NCBI GenBank assembly: GCA_964448865.1
Contig: CAYUXO010000002.1
Location: 11,602 to 75,601, forward strand
Length of the DNA: 64,000 nucleotides
Direction: 5' to 3'
Source of the DNA: an uncultured Anaerolineales bacterium
GTDB taxonomy: Bacteria; Chloroflexota; Anaerolineae; Anaerolineales; UBA11858
How positions within the stretch are numbered: position 1 is the stretch's first letter; the number at the start of each line of letters is the position of its first letter. Below are positions 17,199 to 61,925 of this stretch, piece by piece. The position numbers were made by a program, and so were the translations under genes. Under the pieces are notes generated by a model that saw nothing but the letters and a program-made list of their open reading frames with translations, did no database searches and had not been told where the DNA came from.

Positions 17199-17208
17199 GC
17201 AAAGAATT

Positions 17209-18246
17209 ATGAATGAGATAAAATCTCGGTTCTTGAGAGCCTGTCACCGTTTACCCGTCGATGCCACGCCTGTCTGGTTTATGCGCCAGGCCGGACGTTA
17301 CATGGCAGAGTACCGTGCTATCCGAGAAAAACTTACTTTATTGGAAATGGTCGAACGTCCGGAGATCGCGGCTGAAGTCACCCTCCAGCCTGTGGAAGCA
17401 CATGGGGTAGATGCTGCAATCCTTTTTGCTGATATCCTGCTGCCTGTAGTGCCTATGGGCTTCAACCTTAAGTTTGTAAAGGGTGAAGGCCCTAGAATTG
17501 ATAATCCGTTTCGTACTGAGGAAGACCTGAAGCGAATCCGGAAGATCAATGCAGTAACTGATCTAGGTCATGTAATGGAAGCAATTAAAATATTGCGGGA
17601 AGAACTCTCTGATGAAGTTGCTTTGATCGGGTTTTCTGGCGCGCCATTTACGGTAGCTTCTTATATTATCGAAGGTGGTCCGTCGAAAGAATACCACCAT
17701 GTTAAATCATTGATGTATGCTTACCCAGAAGTTTGGGGAGAGTTCATGAGCCTGGTGGCAGATACCTTGACAGATTACCTGGTCTCCCAGATTGATGCTG
17801 GCGCACAGGCTGTGCAAGTATTTGATTCCTGGGTGGGGGTGCTTTGCCCGAGTGATTATCAGCAATACGTACTACCCTATTCCCGAAAGATGATCCAGGC
17901 AGCAAAAGCGAAAGATGTGCCTGTGATCCATTTTGGTACCAATACAACCACCTTGCTGCCGCTGATGAAAAAAGCTGGGGGTGATGTAATTGGCCTGGAT
18001 TGGCGTATTCCCTTAGATGAGGGCTGGAAGCTGTTGGGCGAGGATGTGGCCGTACAAGGCAACCTTGACCCGATCGCGCTCTTTTCTCCCCGGGAAGTGT
18101 TGGGGGGGAAAGTAAAGGATGTGTTAGATCGAGCAGATGGAAGACCAGGGCACATTTTCAACCTTGGGCACGGCATCTCTCAATTTACAAATCCAGATCA
18201 GGTTAAAACCGTCGTGGAGATGGTTCATGATTGGACGGCAAAATGA
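17209..18246 (+). CDS. hemE: Uroporphyrinogen decarboxylase
   Basis: PVWFMRQAGRYMAEYR signature. ATG 17209 was chosen over the upstream extension that overlaps the radical-SAM gene. Confidence 0.9.
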   Translation: MNEIKSRFLRACHRLPVDATPVWFMRQAGRYMAEYRAIREKLTLLEMVERPEIAAEVTLQPVEAHGVDAAILFADILLPVVPMGFNLKFVKGEGPRIDNPFRTEEDLKRIRKINAVTDLGHVMEAIKILREELSDEVALIGFSGAPFTVASYIIEGGPSKEYHHVKSLMYAYPEVWGEFMSLVADTLTDYLVSQIDAGAQAVQVFDSWVGVLCPSDYQQYVLPYSRKMIQAAKAKDVPVIHFGTNTTTLLPLMKKAGGDVIGLDWRIPLDEGWKLLGEDVAVQGNLDPIALFSPREVLGGKVKDVLDRADGRPGHIFNLGHGISQFTNPDQVKTVVEMVHDWTAK

Positions 18247-19670: not shown

Positions 19671-19678
19671 GGGGATAA

Positions 19679-20971
19679 ATGGGAATCGATAAATCAATTC
19701 AGTTATTTGATAGAGCAAAAGAAATTCTACCTGGCGGCGTAAGTTCTCCGGTTCGGGCTTTCCGGGCGGTGGGTGGTCAGCCTCTGTTCATTGATCACGG
19801 CCAAGGTCCTTACTTATTTGATGTTGATGGTAACCGCTATATTGATTATGTGCTGTCATGGGGCCCATTGATCTTGGGCCATTCTCATCCAGAAATCGTC
19901 TCTGCTCTGCATGACACGCTTGAGAGTGGAACCAGCTTTGGTGCACCAAGTCCGTTGGAAATTAGACTGGCAGAATTAATTCAAACTTTTATGCCCCAAT
20001 TGGAAATGCTCCGCTTTGTAAACTCCGGCACTGAAGCTACAATGAGCGCCCTCCGGTTGGCAAGAGCCTTTACAAAGCGAGACAAGATTATTAAATTTGA
20101 AGGCTGCTACCACGGTCATGCAGATTTACTGCTGGTACAGGCTGGGTCTGGAGTGGTTACATTAGGATTACCGGATTCTCCCGGTGTACCTCCAGCAACA
20201 GTTCAAGATACCTTGGTTGCGCGATACAATGATTTAGATTCGGTTGAATCATTGTTCGAACAGTTCCCGGAAGAAATTGCTACTGTGATCGTTGAACCCG
20301 TTGCTGGGAATATGGGTGTTGTTCCGCCAGTACCGGGATTCCTTGAAGGCCTGCAGGCTATTACCAAAAAGTATAGCAGCTTATTGATCTTTGATGAGGT
20401 GATGACCGGATTCCGAGTACATCCCGGAGGCGCTCAAACGCTTTATGATATTCAACCCGACCTGACGACTTTGGGGAAAGTAATAGGAGGTGGCTTGCCG
20501 GTTGGCGCTTATGGGGGGCGGAAAGATATTATGGAACATATAGCACCAGCCGGATCTGTTTATCAGGCTGGAACTTTGTCAGGGAATCCCCTGGCAATGA
20601 CAGCTGGTATCACAACACTTGAAGTTTTGCAGCAGCCTGGCATTTGGGAGAAATTAGAAGAAGCTGTATCAAAACTTACCAAGGGGGTAGCGCAGATTGC
20701 AGTGGAAACAGGAATTACGATTAGGCAAACTGCAGTAGGAACGATGTTCTCTACCTTCTTTACAGAAAGCGAGATCAAAGATTGGCCGTCAGTCAAGACG
20801 TGTGACACTGAGCGATTCGGAAGGTTTTTTAGAAAAATGCTGGAAGAAGGAATTTACCTGGCACCATCGCAGTTTGAAGCTGGCTTTATGTCAACAGTGC
20901 ACGATCAAAAAACCATTGACAAGACACTTGAAGCTGTGGACAGAGTCTTCAGGACTTTAGTCAGCGAATAG
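19679..20971 (+). CDS. hemL: Glutamate-1-semialdehyde 2,1-aminomutase
   Basis: [10 protein letters not shown] and PLP-Lys region TLGKVIGGG. Confidence 0.9.
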
Positions 20972-21326
20972 TATACAGGAAAGCAATAATTATTTTTTGA
21001 CAAAAGTTTCTAACTTGGATTTCATATTTGTTATTATCGAGTCCATGCCAGCGGGGAAATTATCATGAAAGTTTCTTTTTAATGGGCATATCTGAAATGC
21101 AGTGCTTTTTATGCCGCATTACATTCCAATGTTGGTTGATTTGTATTATAAACCTTGACGCAGTTTGCCTTTGGCAATATCTTTTTGGCTTAAGTTGCTC
21201 TGTTCATGATGGAGATCTTTTTGTTGATTGCGGTTTAATTCTTGACAATAAAATTAGACATCACAGCTTTGAGGGAAAACAAGAAGCAACTGATGTTCCG
21301 GCGTAACCTTTTATGCAATGGAAGAT

Positions 21327-21359
21327 GAAAAAAAAGGTGAAAGGAAAAACCTTTCATCC
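21327..21359 (-). terminator. Intrinsic terminator of hemH
   Basis: On the minus strand: ggatgaaagg-ttttt-cctttcacc followed by a T8 run. The hairpin begins at the hemH stop codon. Confidence 0.6.
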
Positions 21360-22337
21360 TTTTCTTTTCGCTTTTGAAAGTGAATCCTTGATAATTTCAG
21401 CCAAAGCCCGGATCTGAGAATCACTGTCATTGAGCGCTGGAATGTAGTGAAATTCGCCTCCGCCCGCCTGGGAAAAGATATCCTTGCCATGAATAGCGAT
21501 TTCTTCCAGCGTTTCCAAGCAGTCCACAGCAAAACCCGGGCATAACACGTGGAGATTTTTGCACCCTTCTTCACCCAGGGTCTTTATTGTATTGTCTGTA
21601 TAGGGATCCAGCCAGGCTTCAGGTCCAAAGCGGGATTGAAATGCGACATCGGTATCACTGGCCTGCAGCCCTGCTTTTTGTGATACCAGGCTGGATGTAT
21701 CATAGCATTTTGTCTGATATGGTTCGCCTTTTCTCGTTATATAACGTTTTGGGACACCGTGGAACGAAAAGAGGGTTTTTTCTGGTTTTCCAGTTAACGC
21801 CCAGGCATCTTGTAAGGAACCTGCCAGGGCAGAAATGTAAGCGGGGTGATTGTGATAATCCTTAATGATCGTGACTGACTTGAAACCAGATCCGACGGCG
21901 AGCCCTGCCTTTGTTTTTAGAATGGCAGTCAAATTAGTGGTGGAGCTGTATTGGGGAAAGAGAGGAAAAACCACTAGGTGGGCAACACCTTTTTCTCTGA
22001 GTTCCTTTAAACCCTGCCCAATTGAAGGGTTACCGTAGCTCATTCCAATTGATACTTCCCAGCCGGGATTTTTTTGAACCAGTTTGGTGGCCATTGACTG
22101 CATGAGGCACAGCAGCGGTGAGCCGGATGCAGTCCAGATCTTTTTATACAGAAGGGCAGATTTTTGGGGGCGCTTTCGGAGGATAATCTTCTCAAGGATG
22201 GGCATCCAAAGCCAGCGTGGGTAATCGACCACCTGGGGGTCACTGAGAAATTCCGCCAGAAAATCACGGACAGCTTTTTCCGTCGGCGCATCCGGTGTTC
22301 CGATATTGATCAGTAAGATTCCTAGTTTATGATTCAT
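21354..22337 (-). CDS. hemH: Ferrochelatase (HemH/CpfC)
   Basis: LLINIGTPDAPT N-terminus, FSFHGVP and ferrochelatase length. Convergent with the haem operon. Confidence 0.9.
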   Translation of the reverse strand: MNHKLGILLINIGTPDAPTEKAVRDFLAEFLSDPQVVDYPRWLWMPILEKIILRKRPQKSALLYKKIWTASGSPLLCLMQSMATKLVQKNPGWEVSIGMSYGNPSIGQGLKELREKGVAHLVVFPLFPQYSSTTNLTAILKTKAGLAVGSGFKSVTIIKDYHNHPAYISALAGSLQDAWALTGKPEKTLFSFHGVPKRYITRKGEPYQTKCYDTSSLVSQKAGLQASDTDVAFQSRFGPEAWLDPYTDNTIKTLGEEGCKNLHVLCPGFAVDCLETLEEIAIHGKDIFSQAGGGEFHYIPALNDSDSQIRALAEIIKDSLSKAKRKG

Positions 22338-26109: not shown

Positions 26110-26202
26110 TATATCCAGCCTCCCTGCAGCTCATTTGTGATGATAGGTACAAAGTATATCTGCGCTCTGCCTCGTTGACATGCGCTTTTCTGCGTGTTTG
26201 AG

Positions 26203-26220
26203 ATAGGCAGAATTGCTTAT
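26203..26220. promoter_or_regulatory. Island palindrome site 1: ATAGGCAG-AA-TTGCTTAT
   Basis: Matches ATARGC-N6-GCYTAT. Lies in the divergent intergenic region between the PCYCGC/CuA operon (start 26109, minus) and paralog P1 (26279, plus). TTGACA sits at 26175-26180. Confidence 0.5.
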
Positions 26221-26278
26221 CCGGGCATGGGTAAGAGAACGCTGTAAAAAGCTAATCAAACGCTGTATATTAGGATCT

Positions 26279-29231: not shown

Positions 29232-29825
29232 ATGAAAAGAGATTTGTTGCAAAAGAGGCGCAAGGAACAGCTCCGGGCTAAGAGATTGAAAAGCGCGTTA
29301 ATTATTGGCGGGACAGCCGTAGTTGTGTTTGGATTTATAGGATTAGTGATTTGGAATAACGTTAAACCTCTTGCCGGGGAAACAGTCCTTCATCTCGAAG
29401 ATGCCACGGCACACATTGAAGAAGGAGAGGATCCGGGGCCATTCAGTTCCAATCCGCCAACTTCCGGCAGGCATTATGGCATCCCTCTTGCGGCAGGATT
29501 TTATGAAGAAGGCGATTCGATAACTCAGGTACCCTATCCTGAAGGTTATCTTCTTCATAACCTGGAACATGGATATATCATATTTTGGTACAACTGTGAA
29601 ATAGTGGACAAATCTGAATGTACAGAGATAAAATCCCGGATTCGGACTACAATTGATGATTTTCAAGAATATAAGCTGATTGGATTTCCCTGGCCGGATA
29701 TGGATTTTTCTCTGGTGATGGCTTCCTGGGGTCAAATGCAAACATTTTCCAGTTTTGACGAATCAGCTGCAAAAGAATTTATTCAGACAAACCGCAATCA
29801 GGCTCCTGAACCAAATACTCCCTGA
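29232..29825 (+). CDS. DUF3105-family membrane-anchored protein
   Basis: NPPTSGRHYG...LLHNLEHGYIIFWYNC...ASWGQ pattern. A paralog (a pseudogene) lies at 58444..59055. Confidence 0.6.
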   Translation: MKRDLLQKRRKEQLRAKRLKSALIIGGTAVVVFGFIGLVIWNNVKPLAGETVLHLEDATAHIEEGEDPGPFSSNPPTSGRHYGIPLAAGFYEEGDSITQVPYPEGYLLHNLEHGYIIFWYNCEIVDKSECTEIKSRIRTTIDDFQEYKLIGFPWPDMDFSLVMASWGQMQTFSSFDESAAKEFIQTNRNQAPEPNTP

Positions 29826-29931
29826 TTCTTGCGAGTCAGCGGTTTCGGATATTGAATTTAATTCAGCTTTTCATGTTATCCAAGGGACAATCTGCTCCTA
29901 TTGGAACTACCAGATCTGGGAGATTTAATTT

Positions 29932-30663
29932 ATGGCTGCGGTTAATGAAACCATGAAAGAAAACACTAGAATTGCTGATTGGCTGACCTCAGTAATCAGC
30001 AATCATTGGATGCTGGTCATCAGCCTGTCATTCGGTTTCTATGCAGGATTGCCTTTTTTGGCGCCAGTCCTCAAACAGCTCGGGTTGGATGGATTAGCGA
30101 ACGGAATTTATTTCCTTTATTCCTTTCTCTGTCATCAATACCCGCAGCGATCTTTCTTTTTATTTGGTCAAAACAGCTCCTATTCTCTGGATAAGATCCA
30201 GCTCTGGCAGGATTCCAGCAACCCGCTGCTGCTGGGAAAATTTATTGGAAATTCCCAACTGGGCTGGAAAGTAGCCTGGTCGGACCGCATGGTTTCCATG
30301 TACGGCAGCATACCGATCATAGGTTGGTTGTGGTACCCCTTTCGCCGTAAAATCAAACCACTATCGATTTGGGGCTTTTTGTTGTTTCTGGCCCCTATGG
30401 GCCTGGATGGAATAACCCATATCATAAGTGACCTTGCCGGCCTCGGGAACGGGTTTCGGTCCACCAATATCTGGCTGCAAACGATCACAGGAAGTGCCTT
30501 TCCCGTAGAATTTTATTCTGGAACGCAGCTGGGCAGTTTTAACTCTTCCATGCGACTGTTAACCGGGTTGCTTTTCGGGATTGGTGTGGTCTGGTTTTTC
30601 TTCCCCCAGCTTGATATTTTATTTAGAAAAACGAAAAAATATCTTGAGATCAAACAGAGCTGA
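29932..30663 (+). CDS. DUF2085-family membrane protein
   Basis: FLCHQYPQRSFFLFG motif; polytopic. Confidence 0.6.
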   Translation: MAAVNETMKENTRIADWLTSVISNHWMLVISLSFGFYAGLPFLAPVLKQLGLDGLANGIYFLYSFLCHQYPQRSFFLFGQNSSYSLDKIQLWQDSSNPLLLGKFIGNSQLGWKVAWSDRMVSMYGSIPIIGWLWYPFRRKIKPLSIWGFLLFLAPMGLDGITHIISDLAGLGNGFRSTNIWLQTITGSAFPVEFYSGTQLGSFNSSMRLLTGLLFGIGVVWFFFPQLDILFRKTKKYLEIKQS

Positions 30664-30695: not shown

Positions 30696-31811
30696 TCAGC
30701 TTTCGATGACCTCGATCAAAGTTCCTCCCGGCATTGAGACCGTCATATCACCTGGGTCATAGGATATGGATGGCAGCGTCCAGCGGAAGATCCATTTTGC
30801 ATCGTCTGGCCGGGAGTTGACGCAGCCTCTTGAGGTAGGCACCCCGTAGTTGTTGTGCCAGTAGGTGGAGTGGATTGCAACGCCGCTTCCTACAAAGAGA
30901 GAAATCCAGCCCACAGCAGGCAGATCCCAGCCTGCTGCGGCGGATCCGCCGCTGAGCGGAAGGGAAACGGCTTTGCGCCAGATGCGGTGTGCCCCCAGCG
31001 GCGTTCCCCAGGCATCGACCCTGGCCCCGGCGTAGTTATAAAGGGCGCCTGTTGAAACCCTGGCGAAGTAAACTTCCCTGTCATTCTCGAAACAGGACAA
31101 AGTCTGGGTGTTAACATCAACCAGGATTCGCTTGTTCTCTATTTCAGGGTTGATGGGAGTCAGCTCTTGCCGGGTGAGCGGTCGCAGCCCCTCTGCTTTG
31201 GCCCAGAAGAGATCACCATACCCGTATCGTTCATTCAACCTGTACCAGGTTTGCCCTTCGGAATCTTTCTTGATAGCATCAACCCAGGCGATCTGGCTGT
31301 AGTACCAGCGAGGACCCATCCCGATATTGATCCTATTGATCAGCCAGGGAGCGCGAGCCGGAGGATTATCCTGGATGAGTTCAACATAGGGCAGGCTGAC
31401 TTCAACCCACATACCAGGCCCCAGGTTCGTATCCGGGAGCTCATCGATGGGCAGGTTTGGCTGATTTTTCACCGGTTGAACTTCTGGTGCCCAGACAAAG
31501 CCATCAGGTGTTTCTATCCAGCGCTGATTAATCCGGAATGGGTTTGACCCCACTGTTTCATTGATCCAAGGAATGACGGCATCCTGGTACAGAACCCCGA
31601 CTGTGTTGCTGTCAATATCCGGACGGATTTTCAAATCAACTTTACCAACAGTGATGCGGCCAAGGCGTTCTGCCGCGGGAAACTCTCCCAGGCTGAACAG
31701 GCGTCTCCATGGTTGTAAACCTAACATCCCTATCCCTGTAGAGGAAAGCTTTAAAAAGTCACGCCGTGATAGACTGCGCTTGTTTTGATTACTCGGACTG
31801 TTTTCTGCCAT
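30696..31811 (-). CDS. Tat-exported L,D-transpeptidase (YkuD domain)
   Basis: SRRDFLKLSSTGIGMLGL twin-arginine signal and C-terminal HSTYWHNNYGVPTSRGCVN (H...SxGC). ATG 31811 was chosen. Confidence 0.75.
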   Translation of the reverse strand: MAENSPSNQNKRSLSRRDFLKLSSTGIGMLGLQPWRRLFSLGEFPAAERLGRITVGKVDLKIRPDIDSNTVGVLYQDAVIPWINETVGSNPFRINQRWIETPDGFVWAPEVQPVKNQPNLPIDELPDTNLGPGMWVEVSLPYVELIQDNPPARAPWLINRINIGMGPRWYYSQIAWVDAIKKDSEGQTWYRLNERYGYGDLFWAKAEGLRPLTRQELTPINPEIENKRILVDVNTQTLSCFENDREVYFARVSTGALYNYAGARVDAWGTPLGAHRIWRKAVSLPLSGGSAAAGWDLPAVGWISLFVGSGVAIHSTYWHNNYGVPTSRGCVNSRPDDAKWIFRWTLPSISYDPGDMTVSMPGGTLIEVIES

Positions 31812-32228
31812 TTTTCTCAACCGTTTTTTCGAGAAGCTTATTTCTTTATGAGTATGATAATGCCCTGGAAAAGCATATGGATTGTTCAATTGATAAGAAC
31901 CCTATTTCAAATATCAATCCTTCCTTAGAAATGCAAAAGAAAAAATATTTACTTGCCTGCTGTCTTTCCCAAGCGTAGATTCGTTTAAGAGCATAGATAG
32001 CAATTATAGAGGTTGTTATTCTGGATACGCTTTCCAGAAGTGGCGGTCCATCGACACTGGCAGGGAAAGACAGCATACCTGCCACGTTGATTCCATCCCT
32101 GGAGTGTGACCCAGAGGGTTCTTTTTAAAGCTGACATCCAATACTTCTTCCTGGCAAAAGTAATATTGTCATACGTTATAATAACGGATTTAACTTCGGG
32201 CAATATGGGCCATGTAGCTCTAATACCG

Positions 32229-32246
32229 ATAAGCAATTTTGCTTAT
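32229..32246. promoter_or_regulatory. Island palindrome site 2: ATAAGCAA-TT-TTGCTTAT
   Basis: Perfect 8-2-8 palindrome in the 650-nt gap upstream of the L,D-transpeptidase gene. Confidence 0.45.
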
Positions 32247-35917: not shown

Positions 35918-35935
35918 ATAGGCTAGAAAGCCTGT
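35918..35935. promoter_or_regulatory. Island palindrome site 3: ATAGGCTA-GA-AAGCCTGT
   Basis: One mismatch to ATARGC-N6-GCYTAT. Lies 211 nt upstream of the YHS / beta-CASP / gap operon and is nested in a larger inverted repeat, ggttggggga...tctcccaacc. Confidence 0.4.
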
Positions 35936-36880: not shown

Positions 36881-37384
36881 TTACGGGATCCAGTTGGATA
36901 ACACGGTCACAGTTTTGTCCGGTTGGTCCGGATCATTACTCTTGATATGAACCTGGAAATCATGCGGACCGTCCATGCCTGCATGCATCGTGAACGTGCT
37001 GGATTTCAGGGTTACACTCTGACCTGGTTTTAGTACCATCGAACCGATGGTTAAGGAGGGTGGTCAACAACCTTCTTTTACTTCAATATAAGGAGTTTCG
37101 CTGATAATCAATTTCTCGTCCCCAACGTTGGTCAATCTTATCGCAAAGGACTTATTTGTATTAAACTTGACATCACCATAATCGATCAGCTCCTGATCTA
37201 CTTTCAAACTGGGCTGACCGCTAACTTCAATTAAGGACATATCGGCTTTTCTTTCCAAAGCGGATTTGCCAATCAAGATCCCTGCAGAGACCAGAAGTAA
37301 GCTGACAATAATTATCGTGACTAAAGTGTTACGCTGCTGTTTTTTCCGACGTCGTTCTTTGATCCTTTCTCTTGTATTTGCCAT
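36881..37384 (-). CDS. Membrane-anchored DUF1573-like protein interrupted by an in-frame TGA (candidate Sec codon or fresh nonsense mutation)
   Basis: The annotated ORF ends ...YIEVKEGC-TGA (37066-37064). The same frame continues for 60 more sense codons (PPSLTIGSMVLKPGQSVTLKSS...KTVTVLSNWIP) to TAA at 36881, completing the DUF1573-type pattern (N.G...L.I...C.C...PG....V...SN). Confidence 0.55.
37035..37051 (-). other. Hairpin 12 nt downstream of the in-frame UGA (SECIS-like position)
   Basis: Minus strand ACCAUCG-GUU-CGAUGGU (7-bp stem, or 6 bp with a GGUUC loop). The loop starts about 18 nt after the UGA. Confidence 0.3.
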
Positions 37385-37465
37385 ATATCATCTCCGTTTT
37401 TATTAGCCATAAGACACATTTCGTGCCAACACAGTATAGCCTTGTGAAAAGAAGGCGCTCAGAGC

Positions 37466-37519
37466 TATTTAGCGTAATCCTCTATAGGCAATTTCGCCTA
37501 TAGAGGATTACGCTAAATA
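37466..37519. repeat. 54-nt perfect hairpin (24-bp arms, 6-nt loop)
   Basis: tatttagcgtaatcctctataggc-aatttc-gcctatagaggattacgctaaata. Lies between the ABC ATPase gene and the DUF1573-like gene. No flanking U-run. Confidence 0.8.
37484..37501. promoter_or_regulatory. Island palindrome site 4: ATAGGCAA-TT-TCGCCTAT
   Basis: Forms the core of the 54-nt hairpin, 100 nt upstream of the DUF1573-like gene. Confidence 0.45.
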
Positions 37520-37756
37520 ATTTCACCCGTTTGGTGCACTGTGATTAAACCTGGGCGCAGGGCGATAAGTCCTGAAGCTCATTGTCAAACGCGAATTCCA
37601 GGATGGGTTAATTGGGCAAGTGTGGTGTTTTAGTTTTCTGCGTCATTCATCCGGAAAATGTTCCCTCGATGCCGACAGCGCTATTAAGGCACCAACCCAC
37701 TAATAAAGATGGGAGAATATATCATCGAAGTTTAATCTAGAAGTTTTCTTTTAACT

Positions 37757-40746: not shown

Positions 40747-40856
40747 TCTCCATGAATATTTCTAACTTGGAGGGATTACACTCGAAAAATTGAGAAGATA
40801 AGCTCATTATAAATGATTTTCGTTCATTTGAAATGCGACAGTATACTTGCTCAACT

Positions 40857-40874
40857 ATAAGCAATCTTGCTTAT
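40857..40874. promoter_or_regulatory. Island palindrome site 5: ATAAGCAA-TC-TTGCTTAT
   Basis: Perfect arms; extends to a 10-2-10 palindrome (ctataagcaa tc ttgcttatag). Lies 111 nt upstream of the ABC operon. Confidence 0.5.
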
Positions 40875-40997
40875 AGAATTTGTTAGTAATAAGTGTCATG
40901 AGGGAAAATGGTAATGAATATATCCGCCAAGTGGCGGTTTGGATATCTATCTATTTTTCCAATGTCTCAATATGAAGAATACTGCTCATTTATGTGC

Positions 40998-41015
40998 ATA
41001 GGTAATAATGCCTAT
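40998..41015. promoter_or_regulatory. Island palindrome site 6: ATAGGTAA-TA-ATGCCTAT
   Basis: Lies 72 nt upstream of P2-csoR-copA. An extra GCCTAT half-site follows at 41016-41021. Confidence 0.5.
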
Positions 41016-41086
41016 GCCTATATGCGATAAAGGGCGCTTTTTTATTCGGCGAAAATCTTCTATACTGGAGGCAATGGAGCAAGATT

Positions 41087-41470
41087 ATGTCAATGGATCC
41101 TCAATTCTCAACGCTAGATATGGACTGTGAAACCACTATTGCACACTTAACCCGGCGGTTATCATATCATGGGCTGTGGACTATTCGTGATTTCGACCTG
41201 CAATCAGCTTGCGCTTCGTTTACGGATCTGAGCTGTCCACACAACGGTGATTCCACATGTGGCTGCCAAATGGTTGTCCTGTTAGTTTTTAGCAATGAAG
41301 CTTCTCCAGCTTCAATTGTGCTTCATACTCATCACGGTAAAACCGATGTTGACCTGATCGATTCGCCCAACAACTACCCTGGTCAACAATTAAAAAGAAC
41401 AATACAGCACGCGTTTGAAAAGATCGAGGATTCGCTTCTGTTGTTGAATTGGGAGACAAATGCAATCTGA
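41087..41470 (+). CDS. Small Cys/His-rich protein, paralog P2
   Basis: DFDLQ-x8-LSCPHNGDSTCGCQMVVLLVF-x11-HTHHGKT. Its stop overlaps the csoR-like start by 11 nt. Confidence 0.65.
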   Translation: MSMDPQFSTLDMDCETTIAHLTRRLSYHGLWTIRDFDLQSACASFTDLSCPHNGDSTCGCQMVVLLVFSNEASPASIVLHTHHGKTDVDLIDSPNNYPGQQLKRTIQHAFEKIEDSLLLLNWETNAI

Positions 41471-41741
41471 TATTTATTCATCCGTTATTGCCCGGCTGAG
41501 TTCAGCTGAAGGACACCTTCGAGCTGTCAACGGCATGGTGGAATCCCAGATTCCGAGCCGAATTGTTCTCCATCAATTGCGCGCTGTACAGGGAGCGTTA
41601 AAGGCAGTATCAAAGATGATTCATGGAGAATATATTGAGGAATGTTTGAGGATTTTAGTGACGAGCGATTCTCCAGAAGAAAGCCAGCAAGCTTTGGATT
41701 CTCTCCTGGAGTTGTACAACTGGTCAGTTAGTCAAAAATAA
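41460..41741 (+). CDS. CsoR/RcnR/FrmR-family (DUF156) protein lacking canonical Cu(I) ligands
   Basis: RLSSAEGHLRAVNGMVE...VLHQLRAVQGALKAVSKMI..EECL matches the family helices. By my alignment to the CsoR x-C-H-C fingerprint the ligand positions read S, Y and C. Confidence 0.65.
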   Translation: MQSDIYSSVIARLSSAEGHLRAVNGMVESQIPSRIVLHQLRAVQGALKAVSKMIHGEYIEECLRILVTSDSPEESQQALDSLLELYNWSVSQK

Positions 41742-49707: not shown

Positions 49708-49725
49708 ATAGGCATTATTGCTTAT
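49708..49725. promoter_or_regulatory. Island palindrome site 7: ATAGGCAT-TA-TTGCTTAT
   Basis: Lies at the distal end of the ~300-nt CBS leader and 430 nt upstream of the Gly/Met-rich protein gene. Confidence 0.45.
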
Positions 49726-50154: not shown

Positions 50155-50991
50155 ATGAATAAAGTAGTACGTGTTTCACTTATTGTTATCATCATCCTGG
50201 TTGGCTCTGTTGCCCTGGTCTGGACAGGATACCAGTTTGGCCGCGGGACGGCCTGGTCTGGGGGCGGATCTTTTTACTCGAATATGATGGGTGATATCAA
50301 TCAGGATTCGAGATTCGGTTTTGGCATGGGCCGTGGGATGATGGGGGGATCAGCCGGTTACGGCATGATGAATGGTTTTGATGGGGGTAATTTCATGATG
50401 GGAGGCTTCGACGGGCTTAGCAGTGGAGAATCCCTATCGGTGGAGGATACCCGCGAAGCTGTTGAATCTTACCTTGACCGGTTCAATAATGAAGACCTGG
50501 TGATCGAAGAGATCATGATCTTCGACAACAACGCCTATGCGATCATTGTCGAGGAAAGCACCGGTATCGGCGCTTTTGAGCTGCTGGTGGATCCCCGGAC
50601 CAGAACCGCATTTCCTGAATTCGGACCCAATATGATGTGGAATCTTAAATACGGCATGATGGGGTCCGGTATGATGGGATCTGGCATGATGAGCGGTACA
50701 GGTGGTTTTAGTATGATGGATGGTATGTTTAATGAAAACTATTCATCTGATAATATCAAAGCTGAGTTTCGGGTTACACCTGGAGAGGCGTTTGATCTCG
50801 CCCGGGATTTTCTGAACCGGGTTGATCCTGGTGTGGAAGTGTCGGATGAAATCACCATGTTTTATGGCTACTACACCATAGACACGCAACGTGACGGGGA
50901 AATTGTCGGCATGGTTAGCGTCAACGGTTTCACGGGCCAGGTTTTCCCTCACACCTGGCATGGGGATTTCATTGAGATGGTTGAAGGATAA
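50155..50991 (+). CDS. Membrane-anchored Gly/Met-rich protein with two PepSY-like modules
   Basis: GMGRGMMGGSAGYGMMNGFDGGNFMMGGF and KYGMMGSGMMGSGMMSGTGGFSMMDGMF tracts. Each is followed by a ~70-aa globular segment. Confidence 0.6.
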   Translation: MNKVVRVSLIVIIILVGSVALVWTGYQFGRGTAWSGGGSFYSNMMGDINQDSRFGFGMGRGMMGGSAGYGMMNGFDGGNFMMGGFDGLSSGESLSVEDTREAVESYLDRFNNEDLVIEEIMIFDNNAYAIIVEESTGIGAFELLVDPRTRTAFPEFGPNMMWNLKYGMMGSGMMGSGMMSGTGGFSMMDGMFNENYSSDNIKAEFRVTPGEAFDLARDFLNRVDPGVEVSDEITMFYGYYTIDTQRDGEIVGMVSVNGFTGQVFPHTWHGDFIEMVEG

Positions 50992-51167: not shown

Positions 51168-51185
51168 ATAGGCTATTTTGCCTAC
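51168..51185. promoter_or_regulatory. Island palindrome site 8: ATAGGCTA-TT-TTGCCTAC
   Basis: One mismatch. Lies 197 nt upstream of the DUF302-rhodanese pair. Confidence 0.4.
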
Positions 51186-51381
51186 GATACGATCCGCTTA
51201 ATGACGCTTTGCGTCTGCCCTTGAATAGATACAATGAATTGGAGTTACATGAAGGGATCGATTTCCCCGGATGCAAACAAGCAGGTAAACCCTCAGGAAT
51301 GGAAAATTAATATAAAAGACGGAAATTTCCACTGGGCTTATCAGGAAATTATGGATTCAATATAAAACAGAAGGAGAAAAC

Positions 51382-54701: not shown

Positions 54702-55388
54702 ATGCCTGAAGGAAAAATACTCATCATCGATGATGAGCAGAGTATCCTCGATCTGGTGACAGCCTATTTGGATCGGGAAGATCTTGAATACAAAACCGCA
54801 GTTGACGGCGAAGCAGGCCTGGAAATGGCGAGAACCTATCGTCCGGATGTGATTGTATTGGATATTATGCTGCCTAACATGGATGGAATTGAGCTGTTGA
54901 CAAGGTTGCGGCGGGAGTCTGATGTTTATGTAATTATGTTGACTGCCAAAGGGGAAGAAATTGACAAAGTCATTGGGTTATCTGTTGGAGCTGATGATTA
55001 CCTTGTCAAACCATTCAGCCCCAGGGAATTGATCGCCAGGATCAAAGCCGCCTTGCGGCGCCTGCACCAGCAAGCAGGGCCGAGTCAGGATCACGAAAAG
55101 GTTTTCCAGGGTTTGCGAATTGACACCAGGGGCCGGCAGGTATGGAAAGATGAAAACCTGATTGACCTGACCACAACAGAGTTCGACATTCTCAAGGTGC
55201 TAGCCGATCATCAGGGGATGGTTCTCAGCCGGGAACAGCTGCTGGATAAAGTTTGGGGGCATGACTATTTTGGCGAATTTAGAGTTGTGGATGTTCATGT
55301 CGGCCACGTTCGCATGAAGATTGGAGAGGGATACATCGCTACAGTGCGAGGTGTTGGGTATCGATTTGATGGCAAGGGAGGTGGATGA
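54702..55388 (+). CDS. OmpR/PhoB-family response regulator
   Basis: Receiver domain (ILIIDDE...DVIVLDIMLP...KP) plus a winged-helix C-terminus (TVRGVGYRF). Confidence 0.9.
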   Translation: MPEGKILIIDDEQSILDLVTAYLDREDLEYKTAVDGEAGLEMARTYRPDVIVLDIMLPNMDGIELLTRLRRESDVYVIMLTAKGEEIDKVIGLSVGADDYLVKPFSPRELIARIKAALRRLHQQAGPSQDHEKVFQGLRIDTRGRQVWKDENLIDLTTTEFDILKVLADHQGMVLSREQLLDKVWGHDYFGEFRVVDVHVGHVRMKIGEGYIATVRGVGYRFDGKGGG

Positions 55389-56539
55389 TGTTGAACATTA
55401 TACGAAGCCATATTGGTTGGAAAATATTTTTCTCTTATCTAATCGTTATCTTGGCCGGGATATTAACCTTAGGAACCTCGATTGAGTTTGCTATACCGAC
55501 GGCTTTTGACCAGCATATGATGAATATAGACAACATGATGGGAGGTCAAATAATGGGGGAAATGATGTCCGACCAGGATTTGAATCCGGAAACAGATTTA
55601 TTTTTGAGCTTTCGAAATGCAGTTAATCAAGCGTTATCTCGTGCCGCCGCCGCGGCCTTTTTAGTTGCATTGATCGTCAGCCTGTTGATCAGTTACCGAG
55701 TGGTCAGTCCTGTGAAGGAAATGATGCTTGCCAGCCAATACATCGCCGAAGGCCATTATCAAGAACGGGTTCATGTTCCGGGGGATCCTTCAACGGCAGA
55801 TGAGCTGTCTCAATTAGCGATCAGCTTTAACCGCATGGCAGAAATACTGGATCATAATGAAGTTGTTCGCCAGCGGCTTATTGGTGATATATCACATGAA
55901 CTGCGCACACCGCTGACGGTGATCAAAGGTTCCCTGGAAGGATTGATTGACGATGTTCTTCCTGCTGGCCCCGAGACCTATCAAAAGATTTACGGAGAGA
56001 CAGAACGCTTAACGAGACTGGTTGATGATTTGCAGCAGCTCAGCCGGGTTGAAGCTGGTATCTACCAGTTAGATAAGACACGGGCAGAAGTGCAGGATTT
56101 GATTGAAACTGTGGTTGGCAGACTGCGCCTCCAGTACGATGAGAAAGGAGTGAGTTTAGAAGTCGACTGCCCTCCAGGTCTGCCAGAGATCTATATTGAT
56201 ACACACCGGATTGGACAGGTACTGCTTAATATTGTGGGCAATGCCTTGCAATATACTTCAGCGGGGGGAAAAGTGAAGATTACAGCCGTCCAGGAAGGGA
56301 AGGAAATCCACATAGCGGTAAAGGATACAGGAATGGGCATCCCCCTTGAACACCATTCGCGCTTGTTTACACGGTTTTATCGTGTGGATAAATCGCGTTC
56401 TCGATCCAGCGGTGGGAGCGGTATCGGGTTGACCATTGCCAAGCATTTTGTAGAAGCCCACAACGGACGAATTTGGATGGAAAGCGAAGGCAGGGGAAAG
56501 GGAAGTACCTTTCTTTTTAGTCTTCCTGTAAGGGGATAA
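55385..56539 (+). CDS. Sensor histidine kinase (2 TM, HAMP, HisKA, HATPase) with a Met-rich external loop
   Basis: ISHELRTPLT H-box, N/G boxes and the external loop HMMNIDNMMGGQIMGEMMSD. ATGA overlap with the regulator gene. Confidence 0.85.
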   Translation: MMLNIIRSHIGWKIFFSYLIVILAGILTLGTSIEFAIPTAFDQHMMNIDNMMGGQIMGEMMSDQDLNPETDLFLSFRNAVNQALSRAAAAAFLVALIVSLLISYRVVSPVKEMMLASQYIAEGHYQERVHVPGDPSTADELSQLAISFNRMAEILDHNEVVRQRLIGDISHELRTPLTVIKGSLEGLIDDVLPAGPETYQKIYGETERLTRLVDDLQQLSRVEAGIYQLDKTRAEVQDLIETVVGRLRLQYDEKGVSLEVDCPPGLPEIYIDTHRIGQVLLNIVGNALQYTSAGGKVKITAVQEGKEIHIAVKDTGMGIPLEHHSRLFTRFYRVDKSRSRSSGGSGIGLTIAKHFVEAHNGRIWMESEGRGKGSTFLFSLPVRG

Positions 56540-57910: not shown

Positions 57911-57928
57911 ATAGGCAATAATGCCTGT
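57911..57928. promoter_or_regulatory. Island palindrome site 9: ATAGGCAA-TA-ATGCCTGT
   Basis: One mismatch. Lies 56 nt upstream of the HExxH gene (minus) and 129 nt upstream of P3 (plus). Confidence 0.45.
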
Positions 57929-57935
57929 AAGGGAA

Positions 57936-57973
57936 ACCGCCAAACTGCTCTTATAGGATTGGCGGTGTTTTTT
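57936..57973 (+). terminator. Terminator-like hairpin in the P3 leader
   Basis: accgccaa-15 nt-ttggcggt followed by gtttttt. Lies between palindrome site 9 and the P3 start codon. Confidence 0.45.
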
Positions 57974-58056: not shown

Positions 58057-58434
58057 ATGATCCAAACATCCCCTTTGTTAATTGTGCCCAGGGACTGTGA
58101 ATTTGTCGTGGGGCGTTTGACGCAACGCCTGGCTTTGGGAGGTTATAACGCGGAGCGTTCTTTTGATCTGCAGCGTGTGCAAACCGAGCCTGCTACCTGT
58201 GCCTGCCCTCACCACGGTACGGCAAAGTGCAACTGCCAGATGATTGTTTTGTTGGTTTATTTTCCGTCAGGTGTAATGCGTACCATGATCGCACATGGAT
58301 GTGATGGGATCACCCATCTTGATTGGAGTGAGGAACTTACAATTCAAGAACAGGAAGGGCTGGGAGAGATCATCAAAGATCTTGATGCAGAACTCCATCT
58401 CCCCTTAAAGTCTGATATCCCCGCCAGAACCTAA
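58057..58434 (+). CDS. Small Cys/His-rich protein, paralog P3
   Basis: SFDLQ-x8-CACPHHGTAKCNCQMIVLLVY-x11-HGCDGIT. Confidence 0.65.
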   Translation: MIQTSPLLIVPRDCEFVVGRLTQRLALGGYNAERSFDLQRVQTEPATCACPHHGTAKCNCQMIVLLVYFPSGVMRTMIAHGCDGITHLDWSEELTIQEQEGLGEIIKDLDAELHLPLKSDIPART

Positions 58435-58443
58435 ATTATATCT

Positions 58444-59055
58444 ATGAATGAGAAGTTATTTATGAACCAACCCGGCATTCGAGAGTTGCGGCAAGAAAGA
58501 AAGCGACGAAAGAAATAGATCAAGAATTTGATCAGGGCAGGTATCGCGCTGAGTATCCTGGGAATAAGGGGTTTTTCTGTTTGGCGTATAATGCGCCCAT
58601 CCCTGGGAGAAGAGATCCCAATCATGTCTAATTCCGGGAAACACGTGCCAGAGGGAACGGACCCCGGCCCCTATAACTCTAATCCGCCCACATCCGGCCC
58701 TCACTATGGGCAGGAATATGAAGCCGGGTTTTTTGATGAACAATCTCCGGAATCACGGGTTAAATACACCGAAGGTTATTTGTGACATAATCTGGAGTAT
58801 GGCTAGGTCAGTTTCTGGTATGATTGCGGTTTTTTGGATGACCCGGGTTGTGACACATTAAAATCCCAGATCAAAGAAGTTATGGATAAATTTGACGGCT
58901 TTAAACTGATCGCTTTTCCGTCTGATTCTCTGGATGTTCCACTGGCGATGGTCTCCTGGGGGCAATTGCTGCAGTTTGAGGTTTTGGACCAGGGATTGGC
59001 CAGCCAGTTTGTAAGTGTTAACCGCAACAGGGCCACGGAGCCGAACGCTCCTTAA
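58444..59055 (+). pseudogene. DUF3105-family gene with three in-frame stop codons and no frameshift
   Basis: One frame reads MNEKLFMNQPGIRELRQERKRRKK-TAG(58516)-IKNLIRAG...NPPTSGPHYG...EGYL-TGA(58783)-HNLEYG-TAG(58804)-VSFWYDCG...VSWGQ...EPNAP. It is collinear with the intact paralog at 29232..29825. Confidence 0.7.
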
Positions 59056-59227
59056 CGTCTAAAACAGTATCCACTCAGCAGCCGGTGGGGTGTGTTTCCA
59101 CGCTTATATTGGGGGAAGAACAAGAGGAAGTAATAACATATTCGCTCCTGATTAGCGGCAGAGAGATTCTAGTCGTTATTGGGTAATGATAAAAATTTGT
59201 AAAATTTCTTTGTAGTACAATAAATTC

Positions 59228-59911
59228 ATGACAAATAAAGACACAGAACCTACCATTCGTGTGGTGCTGGCAGATGACCATGCTGTCGTTCGTGCTGGCA
59301 TCCGCCAGTTTTTAGAGAGTGCCGGGGATATCCAGGTTGTAGCTGAAGCAGATGATGGTGAAATGGCAAAAAAACTCATCACGGAACACCTGCCTGATGT
59401 TGCAGTTCTTGATATTCAGATGCCAAAAGCAACAGGGATCGAAGTTACTCAATGGGCCCGCGATAATCAGCTTGAGGTTGGTTTGCTGATCCTGACCGCT
59501 TATGATGATTCTCCTTACGTGATGGCGGTATTACAGGCTGGAGCGAACGGCTATGTATTAAAAACTGCCGCTCCAAGGGAAATTATTCGCGCTGTACGCG
59601 ATGTTTACGCGGGTAATTCTGCCCTGGATGCCAGCATTCTCAACAAGATGATGACCCAGATTTCAAAGGTCAAAGACACACCGCTGGTAGAGGAGTTGAC
59701 TAAACGCGAGATGGAGGTTCTGTCCCTGGTTGGCATGGGGTATATCAACAAAGCCATTGGTGTTCAATTGGGCATCAGCGACCGCACAGTCCAGGGGCAT
59801 TTAGCGCATGTCTTCAGCAAGCTCCAGGCTTCCAGCCGCACCGAAGCGGTGATGCGCGCAGTTTCACTGGGTTGGCTGCCTTCTGATTTGGGACGAATGG
59901 ATTCAGATTAA
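59228..59911 (+). CDS. NarL/LuxR-family response regulator
   Basis: Receiver domain plus a C-terminal LuxR HTH (LTKREMEVLSLVGMGYINKAIGVQLGISDRTVQGH). Confidence 0.9.
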   Translation: MTNKDTEPTIRVVLADDHAVVRAGIRQFLESAGDIQVVAEADDGEMAKKLITEHLPDVAVLDIQMPKATGIEVTQWARDNQLEVGLLILTAYDDSPYVMAVLQAGANGYVLKTAAPREIIRAVRDVYAGNSALDASILNKMMTQISKVKDTPLVEELTKREMEVLSLVGMGYINKAIGVQLGISDRTVQGHLAHVFSKLQASSRTEAVMRAVSLGWLPSDLGRMDSD

Positions 59912-59949
59912 TGACTTCTGCCCCTATTAGCCGGTATTCCTTGGTTTGA

Positions 59950-61689
59950 ATGGAAAACTCTCAACCAATAACTCTTTCCAGCTTACGCAAGCGCGGGATG
60001 TCCCTGCAGCTTTTTGTCTGGATCGTTTTGTCTCTGATTGCGTTCTTAATGGTAGTCACCTTTGGCAGCCTGGCTTTGCACCAACGGGTTATGCGGACTC
60101 TTGTTGGAGAGCGTGACGAACGAGCTGTACGCACTGCCGCCAGTGCGTTGGCAGAGCAGCTTGATTATCGGGCTGCTGACGTCAGAAACCTCTCGCTGCG
60201 GGCTGCTGATGGGATTCCCCTTGACGATATATTATTATCTTCCAGTTTTCTCCTGCCGGATTTTGATGCCGGTTTGGCTTTTTTCTCACCTGAGGGCCAG
60301 TTGCTTGCTCATACTGGAGATGGTTTTCTGTGGACTAATAATGATGTTTTCCGGGTAGAATTGGACAAATCCATCTCTCAGTCCGGGACGGCTCCGCGCT
60401 TTTCACCAGAAGTCCCTGGCCCAAGTGGAAGCAAAGTGGTTGTTCTTCTATCTGCTGCAGCCCGGCCCGGCGCTCCAATTATCATTGGGGCATTTTTTCC
60501 ATCTACTTTAGCAGAACACACACTATCCAACCTTTTCAAAACAGACGATCAGGGAAATATCTTCCTGATTTCCTCCAATGGACAAATTTTATTCAGTTCA
60601 GGGATGGACAATCCGCTGTCCGACCCCATATCTCATCCAGGTGTAAAAAATGCATTACGAGGTGAAAGCGGGGCACTTTATATTGCCGAGGATGGCGTTG
60701 AACATGTAATTGCTTATCAGGTGGTCATGCCGCTGGGCTGGGCTTTGATCATTGAAGAGCCTTGGGAATCCGTTACTTCCCCACTTCTTAACACAACCCT
60801 CTTTGCGCCGCTCATTTTACTTCCTGGTCTTTTGTTATCACTTGTAGCCCTATGGTTTGGAATCCGTCAAATTATGCAGCCGCTCCAAAATCTGGAAGAG
60901 CGGGCTCGTGAATTGGCCTGGGGAGATTTTCAGAGTATTGAAACCACGGTGGGGGGCATTGATGAGATCAGCCGACTGCAAAACGCACTCATCTTTCTGG
61001 CACGGAAAGTTCAGGCATCTCAAAACAACCTGCGCGGCTATATTGGTGCGATTACCACAGGACAGGAGGAAGAACGGCGGCGTCTGGCCAGGGAACTGCA
61101 CGATGAGACCCTGCAGTCGTTGATTGCTCTTAATCAACGGGTACAGTTAGCCCAAATGAATTTAAATGGGACCAGCACAGTAGAACAATTGAACGAGATT
61201 CAGATCATGACCGAGCAAACAATTAAAGATCTTCGCCGCCTGACCCAGGGACTGCGGCCGCTTTATCTCGACGATCTGGGATTGGTCCCTGCTCTGGATA
61301 TGCTGACCCGCGATTTGCAGGAGTCCACCTCAATGCCAATTTCTTTTCAGCGCCTGGGAAAGGAACGGCGTCTGCCTTCTGAGCTGGAATTGGGGCTTTA
61401 CCGAATAGCCCAGGAAGGATTGAGTAATATCCAGCGCCATGCCCGGGCATCACAGTCCTCGCTGGAGATTGAGTTTACACTTGACCAGATCACCTTGACC
61501 ATTGCAGACAACGGACAAGGTTTTGAACTCCCTGAAAGTCCGGCCGAGTTTGCTTCAACAGGGCACTTTGGTTTACTGGGACTTTTCGAGCGGGCAGAAC
61601 TACTTAAGGCAAAACTGGAAATCTTCACAGCCCCAGATCAGGGCACCCGATTGGTTGTAACCCTGGCTCATCCGGAGGGATTAATCTAA
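59950..61689 (+). CDS. Sensor histidine kinase (extracytoplasmic sensor domain, HAMP, HisKA_3, HATPase)
   Basis: Two TM helices flank a ~230-aa external domain. ELHDETLQSL H-box of the NarX/DegS type. Confidence 0.85.
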   Translation: MENSQPITLSSLRKRGMSLQLFVWIVLSLIAFLMVVTFGSLALHQRVMRTLVGERDERAVRTAASALAEQLDYRAADVRNLSLRAADGIPLDDILLSSSFLLPDFDAGLAFFSPEGQLLAHTGDGFLWTNNDVFRVELDKSISQSGTAPRFSPEVPGPSGSKVVVLLSAAARPGAPIIIGAFFPSTLAEHTLSNLFKTDDQGNIFLISSNGQILFSSGMDNPLSDPISHPGVKNALRGESGALYIAEDGVEHVIAYQVVMPLGWALIIEEPWESVTSPLLNTTLFAPLILLPGLLLSLVALWFGIRQIMQPLQNLEERARELAWGDFQSIETTVGGIDEISRLQNALIFLARKVQASQNNLRGYIGAITTGQEEERRRLARELHDETLQSLIALNQRVQLAQMNLNGTSTVEQLNEIQIMTEQTIKDLRRLTQGLRPLYLDDLGLVPALDMLTRDLQESTSMPISFQRLGKERRLPSELELGLYRIAQEGLSNIQRHARASQSSLEIEFTLDQITLTIADNGQGFELPESPAEFASTGHFGLLGLFERAELLKAKLEIFTAPDQGTRLVVTLAHPEGLI

Positions 61690-61826: not shown

Positions 61827-61844
61827 ATAAGCAAACTTGCCTAT
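61827..61844. promoter_or_regulatory. Island palindrome site 10: ATAAGCAA-AC-TTGCCTAT
   Basis: Exact match to ATARGC-N6-GCYTAT, 82 nt upstream of the small membrane protein gene. Confidence 0.45.
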
Positions 61845-61925
61845 AGTCAACCCCGCTAAATTGCGCTTTTGCGCGGGAGGCATGTTTGGTTTAATCCGAA
61901 CAATATGGTTTGGAGGTATAAACTC

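Follow-up and report, generated by a model that had tools for sequence, protein, structure and literature searches.

A conserved palindrome at putative copper-handling promoters of Anaerolineae and a NarL-type response regulator as its probable binder

The DNA stretch analysed here, hereafter the window, spans 64 kb of a contig from an uncultured Anaerolineales bacterium. In its first 22 kb lie housekeeping genes, which encode haem biosynthesis, ZnuA/ABC-3, an enzyme resembling MiaB and an MFS transporter. The metal island beyond them holds, according to Pfam searches, PCYCGC and cupredoxin/cytochrome c genes, a YkuD gene, YHS/beta-CASP/gap genes, MacB-type ABC genes, a CsoR-like gene, CopA, PALP-CBS and DUF302/rhodanese, in agreement with the gene neighbours named in an initial annotation of this DNA, whose sites had been found by eye. 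The island also encodes three paralogous small proteins (P1, P2 and P3), an OmpR-type regulatory pair, and a NarL/GerE-type response regulator with a sensor kinase (Table 1).

An 18-bp palindrome of the full form ATARGCAA-N2-TTGCYTAT, with an A/T-rich centre, recurs across this island. Its core pattern, ATARGCNNNNNNGCYTAT (ATARGC-N6-GCYTAT), occurred six times exactly in the window, where dinucleotide shuffles led to an expectation of 0.03. Allowing one mismatch raised the count to ten, against 0.37 expected, a chance contribution of about 0.4 among these matches, and none of 100 dinucleotide shuffles reached ten. The pattern scan recovered the very coordinates that the initial annotation had listed (six exact sites and four with one mismatch), and credible gene calls bore out its statement that all ten are intergenic and that none lies in the first 26 kb. 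We then scored the window with a position weight matrix (PWM) built from 57 orthologous sites of other genomes. Nine sites scored 19.8-26.4 bits and the tenth, at 35918, 11.4 bits, while nothing else in the 64 kb exceeded 9.9 bits. The window set thus consists of nine robust palindrome sites, clearly set apart from the background in a scan of the kind that the initial annotation had proposed as a check, and one marginal site. No extended repeat is common to the sequences flanking the ten sites.

Table 1. Palindrome sites and genes discussed in the text, with positions in the window.
Feature	Position	Strand	Context or annotation	Match to pattern	PWM score (bits)
Site 1	26203..26220	.	ATAGGCAGAATTGCTTAT; between divergent PCYCGC/cupredoxin operon and P1	exact	26.0
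Site 2	32229..32246	.	340 nt 5' of YkuD L,D-transpeptidase ORF	exact	25.9
Site 3	35918..35935	.	ATAGGCTAGAAAGCCTGT; 5' of YHS/beta-CASP/gap genes	one mismatch	11.4
Site 4	37484..37501	-	DUF1573-like gene (37064-37384, -)		26.4
Site 5	40857..40874	-	MacB-type ABC operon (40746 leftwards)	exact	22.4
Site 6	40998..41015	+	P2-csoR-like-copA operon		19.8
Site 7	49708..49725	.	between PALP-CBS gene (-) and Met/Gly-rich protein gene (50155, +)	exact	24.9
Site 8	51168..51185	+	DUF302-rhodanese		24.2
Site 9	57911..57928	+	P3; divergent HExxH-like gene opposite		23.5
Site 10	61827..61844	+	directly 3' of kinase gene, 5' of small membrane protein gene	exact	25.4
P1	26279-26668		paralogue of P2		
DUF2085 membrane protein	29932..30663	+	Pfam DUF2085		
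P2	41087..41470	+	small cytoplasmic Cys/His protein		
CsoR-like protein	41460..41741	+	Pfam Trns_repr_metal; overlaps P2 stop by 11 nt		
OmpR-type pair	54702-56539		regulator 54702-55388; Pfam		
P3	58057-58434		paralogue of P2		
NarL/GerE-type response regulator, proposed binder	59228..59911	+	Pfam Response_reg + GerE		
Sensor kinase	59950..61689	+	two TM segments, dCache, HAMP, HisKA_3, HATPase		

Beyond the window, the background was drawn from 1.03 Mb of DNA in 79 related loci and from metagenome contigs, which were scanned gene-blind, by a pattern of DNA positions only, and gave at least 120 further loci. The related loci contained 160 palindromes with at most one mismatch, where about 6 per Mb would be expected at the shuffle rate of the window (0.37 per 64 kb). 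Moreover, 130 of 171 sites (76%) fell within the 16% of this DNA that lies outside crude ORF calls, and this comparison of intergenic with coding DNA, which the initial annotation had also proposed, disfavours a REP-type reading.

The P family was the most constant target: a site lay 60-110 nt 5' of the gene in 58 of 82 cases in the related loci, and a second one just past its stop codon in 24 of the 82. Upstream sites were also found for PCYCGC (15/18), YHS (14/45), CopA lying behind YHS (13/28) and DsbD-like genes (7/22). For 116 cases of the gene-blind scan, the ORF immediately following the site encoded a P homologue 62 times, PCYCGC 14 times and CopA 5 times, and 29 downstream ORFs had no match in the window, among them genes for multicopper-oxidase-like proteins and Met-rich lipoproteins. 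A recurrent gene order emerged from the relatives: [PCYCGC ... DUF1573-like] - site - P - (site - multicopper-oxidase-like or Met-rich cupredoxin-like lipoprotein) - DUF2085 - NarL-type regulator - kinase - site - YHS/DsbD-like - CopA. Other targets of the window were not shared in this way. Because homologous genes in the relatives have no palindrome upstream, or nearly none (L,D-transpeptidase 1/13, DUF1573-like 0/18, DUF302 0/5, rhodanese 0/17), the data suggest that the L,D-transpeptidase, DUF1573-like and DUF302-rhodanese genes are lineage-specific targets.

From its distribution, the palindrome would mark copper-handling promoters across the Anaerolineae, namely those of P, PCYCGC, YHS/CopA, DsbD-like and multicopper oxidase genes, and it is very probably a transcription factor site that defines a conserved regulon. 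The initial annotation had proposed a single regulon across the metal island and had suggested phylogenetic footprinting. The proposal gains from the intergenic placement of the sites, from their unrelated flanks and from the outcome of the footprinting, in which orthologous promoters of dozens of Anaerolineae genomes had kept the motif.

When 57 P promoters of the related loci were anchored on the palindrome, information peaked in three places, at the palindrome itself (positions 1-18), at a second element (24-41, or 25-42 as the module is drawn here) and at a -10 box (64-69), with all spacings fixed. The second element is an 18-bp pseudo-dyad (consensus AATRCGnCAnnTGGCKCT) in a 24-bp register with the palindrome, the -10 box has the consensus T-A-n-A-(A/C)-T (TAnAAT), and an A is preferred at position 76, about 7 nt past TAnAAT, near which transcription would start. 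Neither the second conserved element nor the fixed -10 box figures in the initial annotation. With such a start, the centre of the palindrome would fall at about -66, and that of the second element at about -42, where class-II activators bind; at the expected place of a -35 hexamer, the 57 anchored promoters carried no information. Since the -10 box is fixed and a second element is conserved, the palindrome would be part of an activator-dependent promoter, and we infer that the rigid 76-bp module represents an activator architecture and not a repressor operator.

Within the palindrome, whose geometry is 8-2-8 (or 7-2-7), G5C6 and G13C14 were invariant across the 57 sites. The second element has invariant bases of its own, C40 and T41, unlike those of the palindrome. 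The palindrome matrix correlated with the second element and the flanks at three offsets only, +24 (r 0.49), -24 (r 0.32) and +48, the last peak overlapping with the -10 box and perhaps fortuitous. A -35 box was considered as an identity for the second element and rejected, its conserved GCKCT ending 22 nt 5' of the -10 box, too far for a sigma-70 spacer, and its polarity being inverted at 32204 on an unchanged dyad centre. A simple sigma-70 scan likewise returned no two-hexamer promoter for P2. The same layout was seen at PCYCGC, DsbD-like and YHS promoters, with second-element (E2) scores mostly above the random 99th percentile, and 22 P-CsoR-like promoters from other genomes were laid out identically to window site 40998.

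In the window, the composite layout was found at six to eight sites. It was full at 37484 (-), 40998 (+), 51168 (+), 57911 (+) and 61827 (+), weaker at 26203 (both directions), 32229 (-) and 40857 (-), and absent at 35918 and 49708. At 40998 the second element (41021-41039, TATGCGATAAAGGGCGCTT; E2 15.4) is followed by a -10 box TATACT at 41061-41066 (score 11.9), from which the P2 operon would start near 41073 (ATG at 41087). Canonical spacing was also seen at 37484 (second element 37460-37478, E2 13.5; -10 TATACT 37433-37438, 7.1), and site 51168 has a second element at 51191-51209 (E2 9.2) and a -10 box TACAAT at 51230-51235 (7.7). For 57911 and 61827 the second elements lie at 57934-57952 (E2 14.3) and 61850-61868 (E2 12.9), respectively. 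The former site probably also serves the downstream regulator and kinase genes. The position of the latter, right behind the kinase gene, recurs in the relatives, where the site stands 5' of YHS or DsbD-like genes.

The weaker sites depart from the module in different ways. At 26203 the second element is weak, with 4.9 bits against a random 99th percentile of -0.7, and -10-like hexamers flank the site on both sides (TATATT 26266-26271, +; TATACT 26153-26158, -), and at 40857 the -10 box TATAAT (40806-40811) scores 7.6 at canonical spacing and the second element is poor (-0.9). An E2-like dyad at 32204-32222 (score 16.1) accompanies site 32229 in the 24-bp register, and the L,D-transpeptidase gene is an uncertain target of that site, given how rarely its orthologues carry one. 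The window scan found neither a second element nor a -10 box at canonical spacing on either side of 49708, and the same was true of 35918, which may be a chance match or a decayed site.

In the response regulator of the island all phospho-acceptor residues of the receiver are intact (D17, D18, D62, T90 and K112), and 34 orthologues show a conservation of at least 80-95% in the HTH/recognition helix. Among solved structures, its nearest homologues are chains that were deposited under the name VraR (E 1e-35). All best NCBIfam scores fell below the respective cut-offs (MadR, 161 bits against 300; NarL, 143 against 250; LiaS-type kinase, 108 against 450). On this domain and score evidence, the regulator is a member of the NarL family and not an orthologue of a named system. 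The palindrome agrees with a NarL/FixJ-type site, an inverted repeat of about 16-20 bp with half-sites recognised independently, in its two inverted half-sites and in the independent variation of mirrored positions, and a regulator of this type and a HisKA_3 kinase are encoded together with the regulon.

Thirty of the related loci are 18 kb or longer, and the regulator was present in 27 of them and the kinase in 25, as compared with 4 for the CsoR-like gene and 1 for the OmpR-type regulator, a sampling into which the association of site and regulator is partly built, the loci having been retrieved via the P gene, itself syntenic with the regulator. Gene-blind loci of at least 5 kb contained the regulator in 21 of 42 cases, on contigs that are short. 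The OmpR-type regulator was rejected as binder, with no site nearby and its near absence from the long loci; it scored 173 bits against a heavy-metal subfamily cut-off of 279.

As one possible binder, the initial annotation had named a dimeric HTH regulator encoded elsewhere. An HTH regulator is indeed now favoured over the CsoR-like protein, but 'elsewhere' did not hold, the regulator-kinase pair lying at 59228-61689 and being syntenic with the sites in most of the long loci. We consider that the NarL/LiaR-type regulator is probably the binder and that it would act as an activator. This assignment draws on synteny and on family analogy with LiaR-type systems.

The analogy can be followed in some detail. 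LiaR is reported to bind a consensus site and an adjoining secondary site, and its activated form has been modelled as a tetramer whose four HTH motifs cover about 42 nt and bend the DNA towards RNA polymerase; the inverted-repeat palindrome and its adjoining second element together span 42 bp, as in that model (PMC4482077). The sequence architecture accords with the LiaR/VraR type of organisation in general (primary plus secondary site, a footprint of about 42-46 bp, a weak promoter). Further likenesses to the LiaFSR/VraSR systems of Firmicutes, which respond to envelope stress, are the VraR-like regulator, the matches of the kinase to LiaS-type HisKA_3 models, the conserved small and membrane accessory genes adjoining the kinase, and the probable inclusion of the system in its own regulon. 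In contrast, the accessory proteins here are a DUF302-like Cys/His protein and DUF2085 and not LiaF, every NCBIfam equivalog score is below its cut-off, the site is unlike T-N4-C-N4-G-N4-A, and the regulon concerns copper handling and not envelope stress. LiaS is not known to have a Cache domain, whereas the island kinase has a large extracytoplasmic one, in which no obvious metal-binding motif was seen.

Comparison with other systems also yields partial matches. NarL sites have the '7-2-7' form TACYYMT-N2-AKRRGTA, and TAGGCAA-N2-TTGCCTA can likewise be read as inverted heptamers with outer TA/TA served by a GerE-type HTH regulator; heptamer sequence, signal and lineage differ, and the strong sites here are full palindromes with a fixed partner element. 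CusRS and CopRS are OmpR-family copper two-component systems that act on a palindromic 'copper box' with inner CAA-N2-TTG. They resemble the present case, in which a two-component system would likewise act on a palindromic box to activate genes for copper efflux and oxidases, and differ from it in that the regulator here is of the NarL/GerE type and not an OmpR winged helix, and that the OmpR-type regulator of the window is syntenic in only 1 of the 30 long loci.

It could be, instead, that the palindrome is bound by another dimeric regulator encoded outside the sampled neighbourhoods, with the NarL-type regulator acting on the second element only, or on something else. Two proteins would fit the observation that the second element is as strongly conserved as the palindrome and has different invariant bases. 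Furthermore, in none of 53 loci did a palindrome lie directly 5' of the regulator gene, so that autoregulation would require read-through from the P promoter. However, when about 1,270 neighbouring ORFs were clustered, the transcription factors among them fell into just two families, those of the NarL-type regulator and of the CsoR-like protein, and the exact 24-bp register of the two elements, with their correlated matrices, fits the use of primary and secondary sites by LiaR (PMC4482077). We regard a separate palindrome-binding regulator as doubtful.

The initial annotation had put forward the CsoR-like protein as a candidate binder, and the palindrome would then be a repressor operator, perhaps with P2 as the metal-sensing partner. 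The ATA...TAT ends may resemble CsoR operators, which have a G/C tract at their centre. Like the operators of CsoR, RicR and InrS, the palindrome lies in a metal-island context with a CsoR-family gene behind one site: that gene belongs to the operon behind site 40998, where it overlaps the stop codon of P2, and the P-CsoR-like-CopA arrangement recurs in 22 promoters with a site at each. The candidacy was not supported by the wider comparison, in which the gene was missing from 26 of the 30 long site-bearing loci and 80 of their 94 sites had no CsoR-like gene within 10 kb, though other parts of those genomes could encode it. With their centres about 66 bp 5' of the predicted start, the sites lie over neither the -10 box nor the start, and their middle is A/T-rich. 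The remark that the protein is ligand-poor proved accurate, since alignment to InrS, its closest solved homologue, showed two of the three canonical ligands replaced (the first Cys by Ser and the His by Tyr, with the last Cys kept). None of three marks of a CsoR/RcnR operator was found, be it overlap with -10/-35 or the inferred start, co-occurrence of the gene, or the Cys-His-Cys set, and the CsoR-like protein is an unlikely binder. A separate CsoR operator near the -10 box or the start was sought in the 22 P-CsoR-like promoters, and none was visible.

A P-family protein acting as a DNA-binding autoregulator would explain why no other gene has a site before it as constantly as P does, in the related loci and in the gene-blind scan alike, and its conserved Cys and His residues are suited to metal sensing (C50, H52, G54, C58, C60, Q61 and H80 are invariant in P1, P2 and P3). 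The three proteins had no match in Pfam. The family comprises 556 clusters at 50% identity and is almost confined to metagenome-assembled genomes of Anaerolineae and other Chloroflexota. In an AF2 model of P2 (pLDDT 77), the best PDB matches were the DUF302 structures 1q9u and 1j3m (Foldseek, TM about 0.5, weak), from which P is predicted to adopt a DUF302-like alpha/beta fold. Against a role in DNA binding, no DNA-binding motif is recognisable in this moderately confident model, and we rejected P as the binder, a role that appears very unlikely for it.

P may instead belong to the sensory side of the system. In the relatives, tblastn matches to DUF2085 were found in 51 of 79 loci, in the order P - DUF2085 - regulator - kinase. 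Between P3 and the regulator of the window, tblastn detected no DUF2085 remnant, and the gap holds a disrupted DUF3105-like reading frame. P, DUF2085, the NarL-type regulator and the Cache kinase might form a multi-component copper sensor, previously undescribed, in which Cu(I) would be bound by P, alone or with DUF2085, and P would thereby control the kinase or the regulator, and P2 would be a detachable sensing subunit for the ligand-less CsoR-like partner. We advance this tentatively, as a conjecture with the odds against it; if true, it would be a LiaFSR-like circuit rewired for metal sensing.

As to whether the palindrome acts as RNA, variation at its positions 4 and 15, which mirror each other, is uncorrelated (Fisher p 0.72) and Rfam gave no match in the window; the palindrome is accordingly, as far as these sequence comparisons tell, DNA read by a symmetric protein and not an RNA stem. 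A reading without a transcription factor, in which the palindrome is a dispersed repeat of the REP/MITE kind or else an RNA hairpin or terminator, would suit sites 32229, 37484 and 61827, which lie just 3' of convergent or preceding genes, the 58-nt inverted repeat (37464-37521) around site 37484 with the T-rich run that follows it, and the terminator-like flag that a simple terminator scan placed on 40855-40876, yet it is extremely unlikely given the unrelated flanks, the spacing to the -10 box and to start codons fixed across dozens of species (at least 57 promoters), the arms without compensatory variation, and the position of the sites 5' of the inferred starts of the following genes.

Our overall reading, to which we assign a probability of roughly 60%, is that the NarL/LiaR-type regulator activates a copper regulon through the palindrome and the second element. 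On this reading, a dimeric transcription factor would have its primary site in the palindrome and would turn on a regulon for copper handling that is conserved across the Anaerolineae. The Cache-HAMP-HisKA_3 kinase would activate the regulator by phosphorylation, one regulator dimer would occupy the palindrome and a second dimer the adjoining element, 42 bp in total, and both would recruit RNA polymerase to promoters that have no -35 hexamer. Transcription of a P-(DUF2085)-regulator-kinase unit would provide positive feedback. The signal, judged from gene content only, would be copper or silver.

In the window, the regulon would take in P1, the P2-csoR-like-copA operon and P3, probably together with the regulator and kinase genes, as well as the PCYCGC/cupredoxin and MacB-type ABC operons, the DUF1573-like gene, DUF302-rhodanese and the small membrane protein gene. 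Membership would be less certain for the L,D-transpeptidase gene, for the gene of the CBS or of the Met-rich protein, and for the YHS operon. The overall reading sits less easily with sites 49708 and 35918, which have no composite layout, and with the several window targets that are not common to the relatives.

OmpR, MerR, CsoR and CopY are the families of the classic copper sensors. Our full-text literature searches returned no NarL-type copper system, no DUF2085 in copper biology and no PCYCGC regulon. What is described here is probably a NarL-family regulon with an unusual probable signal (copper or silver) and unexplored accessory proteins, and, if the regulator assignment is true, it would place a copper-responsive system in the NarL/LiaR branch. 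The Anaerolineae are abundant in sediment, sludge and subsurface metagenomes, and to our knowledge almost nothing is known of their gene regulation. For this class, the palindrome would offer a class-wide marker of a putative copper-stress regulon, whose members include multicopper oxidases and Met-rich cupredoxin-like lipoproteins, together with a testable promoter grammar, a 42-bp double site and a -10 box with a probable regulator. It would also link families of unknown function, namely the P family, DUF2085, PCYCGC and DUF1573-like proteins, to copper handling.

The palindrome is accompanied by a second conserved element of 18-19 bp, AATRCGnCAnnTGGCKCT, which begins 5-6 nt past it and is followed 22 nt further on by a TAnAAT box, an arrangement found in the window and generally in the related loci of other genomes (L001-L079). 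The second element equals the palindrome in information content, and the invariant bases differ between the two. A perfect dyad, CCGCCAAGTGGCGG, which resembles the second element (16.3 bits), lies between both palindromes of the divergent region separating the ABC operon from P2, but does not keep the 24-bp register. Site 37484 is the centre of a near-perfect 58-nt inverted repeat, which arises from a duplication that places a copy of the second element's left half on either side of it. A T-rich run follows this repeat on the minus strand, so that it may also serve as a terminator of the ABC operon.

Features in and around the copper island
Feature	Coordinates	Remark
ZnuA/ABC-3 metal uptake system	7786-10479	
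Haem biosynthesis cluster	12035-22337	GluTR, ALAD, UROD, protoporphyrinogen-oxidase-like, ferrochelatase
P1	26279-26668	unannotated small protein family
P2	41087-41470	same family
P3	58057-58434	same family
Intact DUF3105 and DUF2085 genes	29232-30663	downstream of P1
L,D-transpeptidase	30696-31889	
Second element	37460-37478	
Inverted repeat	37464-37521	
Perfect dyad	40921-40939	
Second element	41021-41039	
CsoR-family gene	41460-41741	
Met/Gly-rich protein	50155-50991	
Second element	51191-51209	
Second element	57934-57952	
P3-regulator gap	58434-59228	
Second element	61850-61868	
Post-P lipoprotein site	~350 nt after P start	L008, L017, L020, L028, L031, L033, L049, L065, L071

The three P paralogues share the motif C-P-H-H-G-x3-C-x-C-Q and an invariant His further on. 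A DUF302-like fold is predicted for their family, which public data divide into 556 clusters at 50% identity and whose examined genome loci nearly all belong to Chloroflexota; its members probably bind Cu(I) in the cytoplasm. In the CsoR-family protein, two of the three ligand positions are replaced, by Ser and Tyr. Its gene begins before P2 ends, with an overlap of 11 nt, and the order P-CsoR-like-CopA is found again at 22 or more promoters in other genomes, which suggests that P and the CsoR-like protein form a functional pair. The stretch separating P3 from the regulator gene, where relatives carry DUF2085, contains a DUF3105-like reading frame interrupted by in-frame stops, and hence either a pseudogene or a sequence error.

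In many relatives, a site directly after P precedes, and is predicted to drive, genes for either of two lipoprotein types, one multicopper-oxidase-like (~350-370 aa) and the other cupredoxin-like (~140 aa, carrying the motif HEFMIMPPL...MGMDM); no gene of either type was seen in the window. The palindrome is absent from the ZnuA/ABC-3 system and from the haem biosynthesis cluster, which directly adjoins the copper island.

Two further genes are candidate targets within the window. The closest palindrome to the first, 49708, lies 430 nt upstream; the gene encodes a 278-aa protein without a Pfam match, whose N-terminal membrane anchor is accompanied by long Met/Gly-rich repeats (MMGSGMMGSGMM...), a composition suggesting a putative Met-rich copper-binding protein. 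The second is the L,D-transpeptidase, associated with site 32229, which appears to have been brought under the regulon in the window genome only, a site being present in just one of 13 relatives. L,D-transpeptidases of E. coli are inhibited by copper, and given this inhibition, induction of the enzyme would be a plausible compensation.
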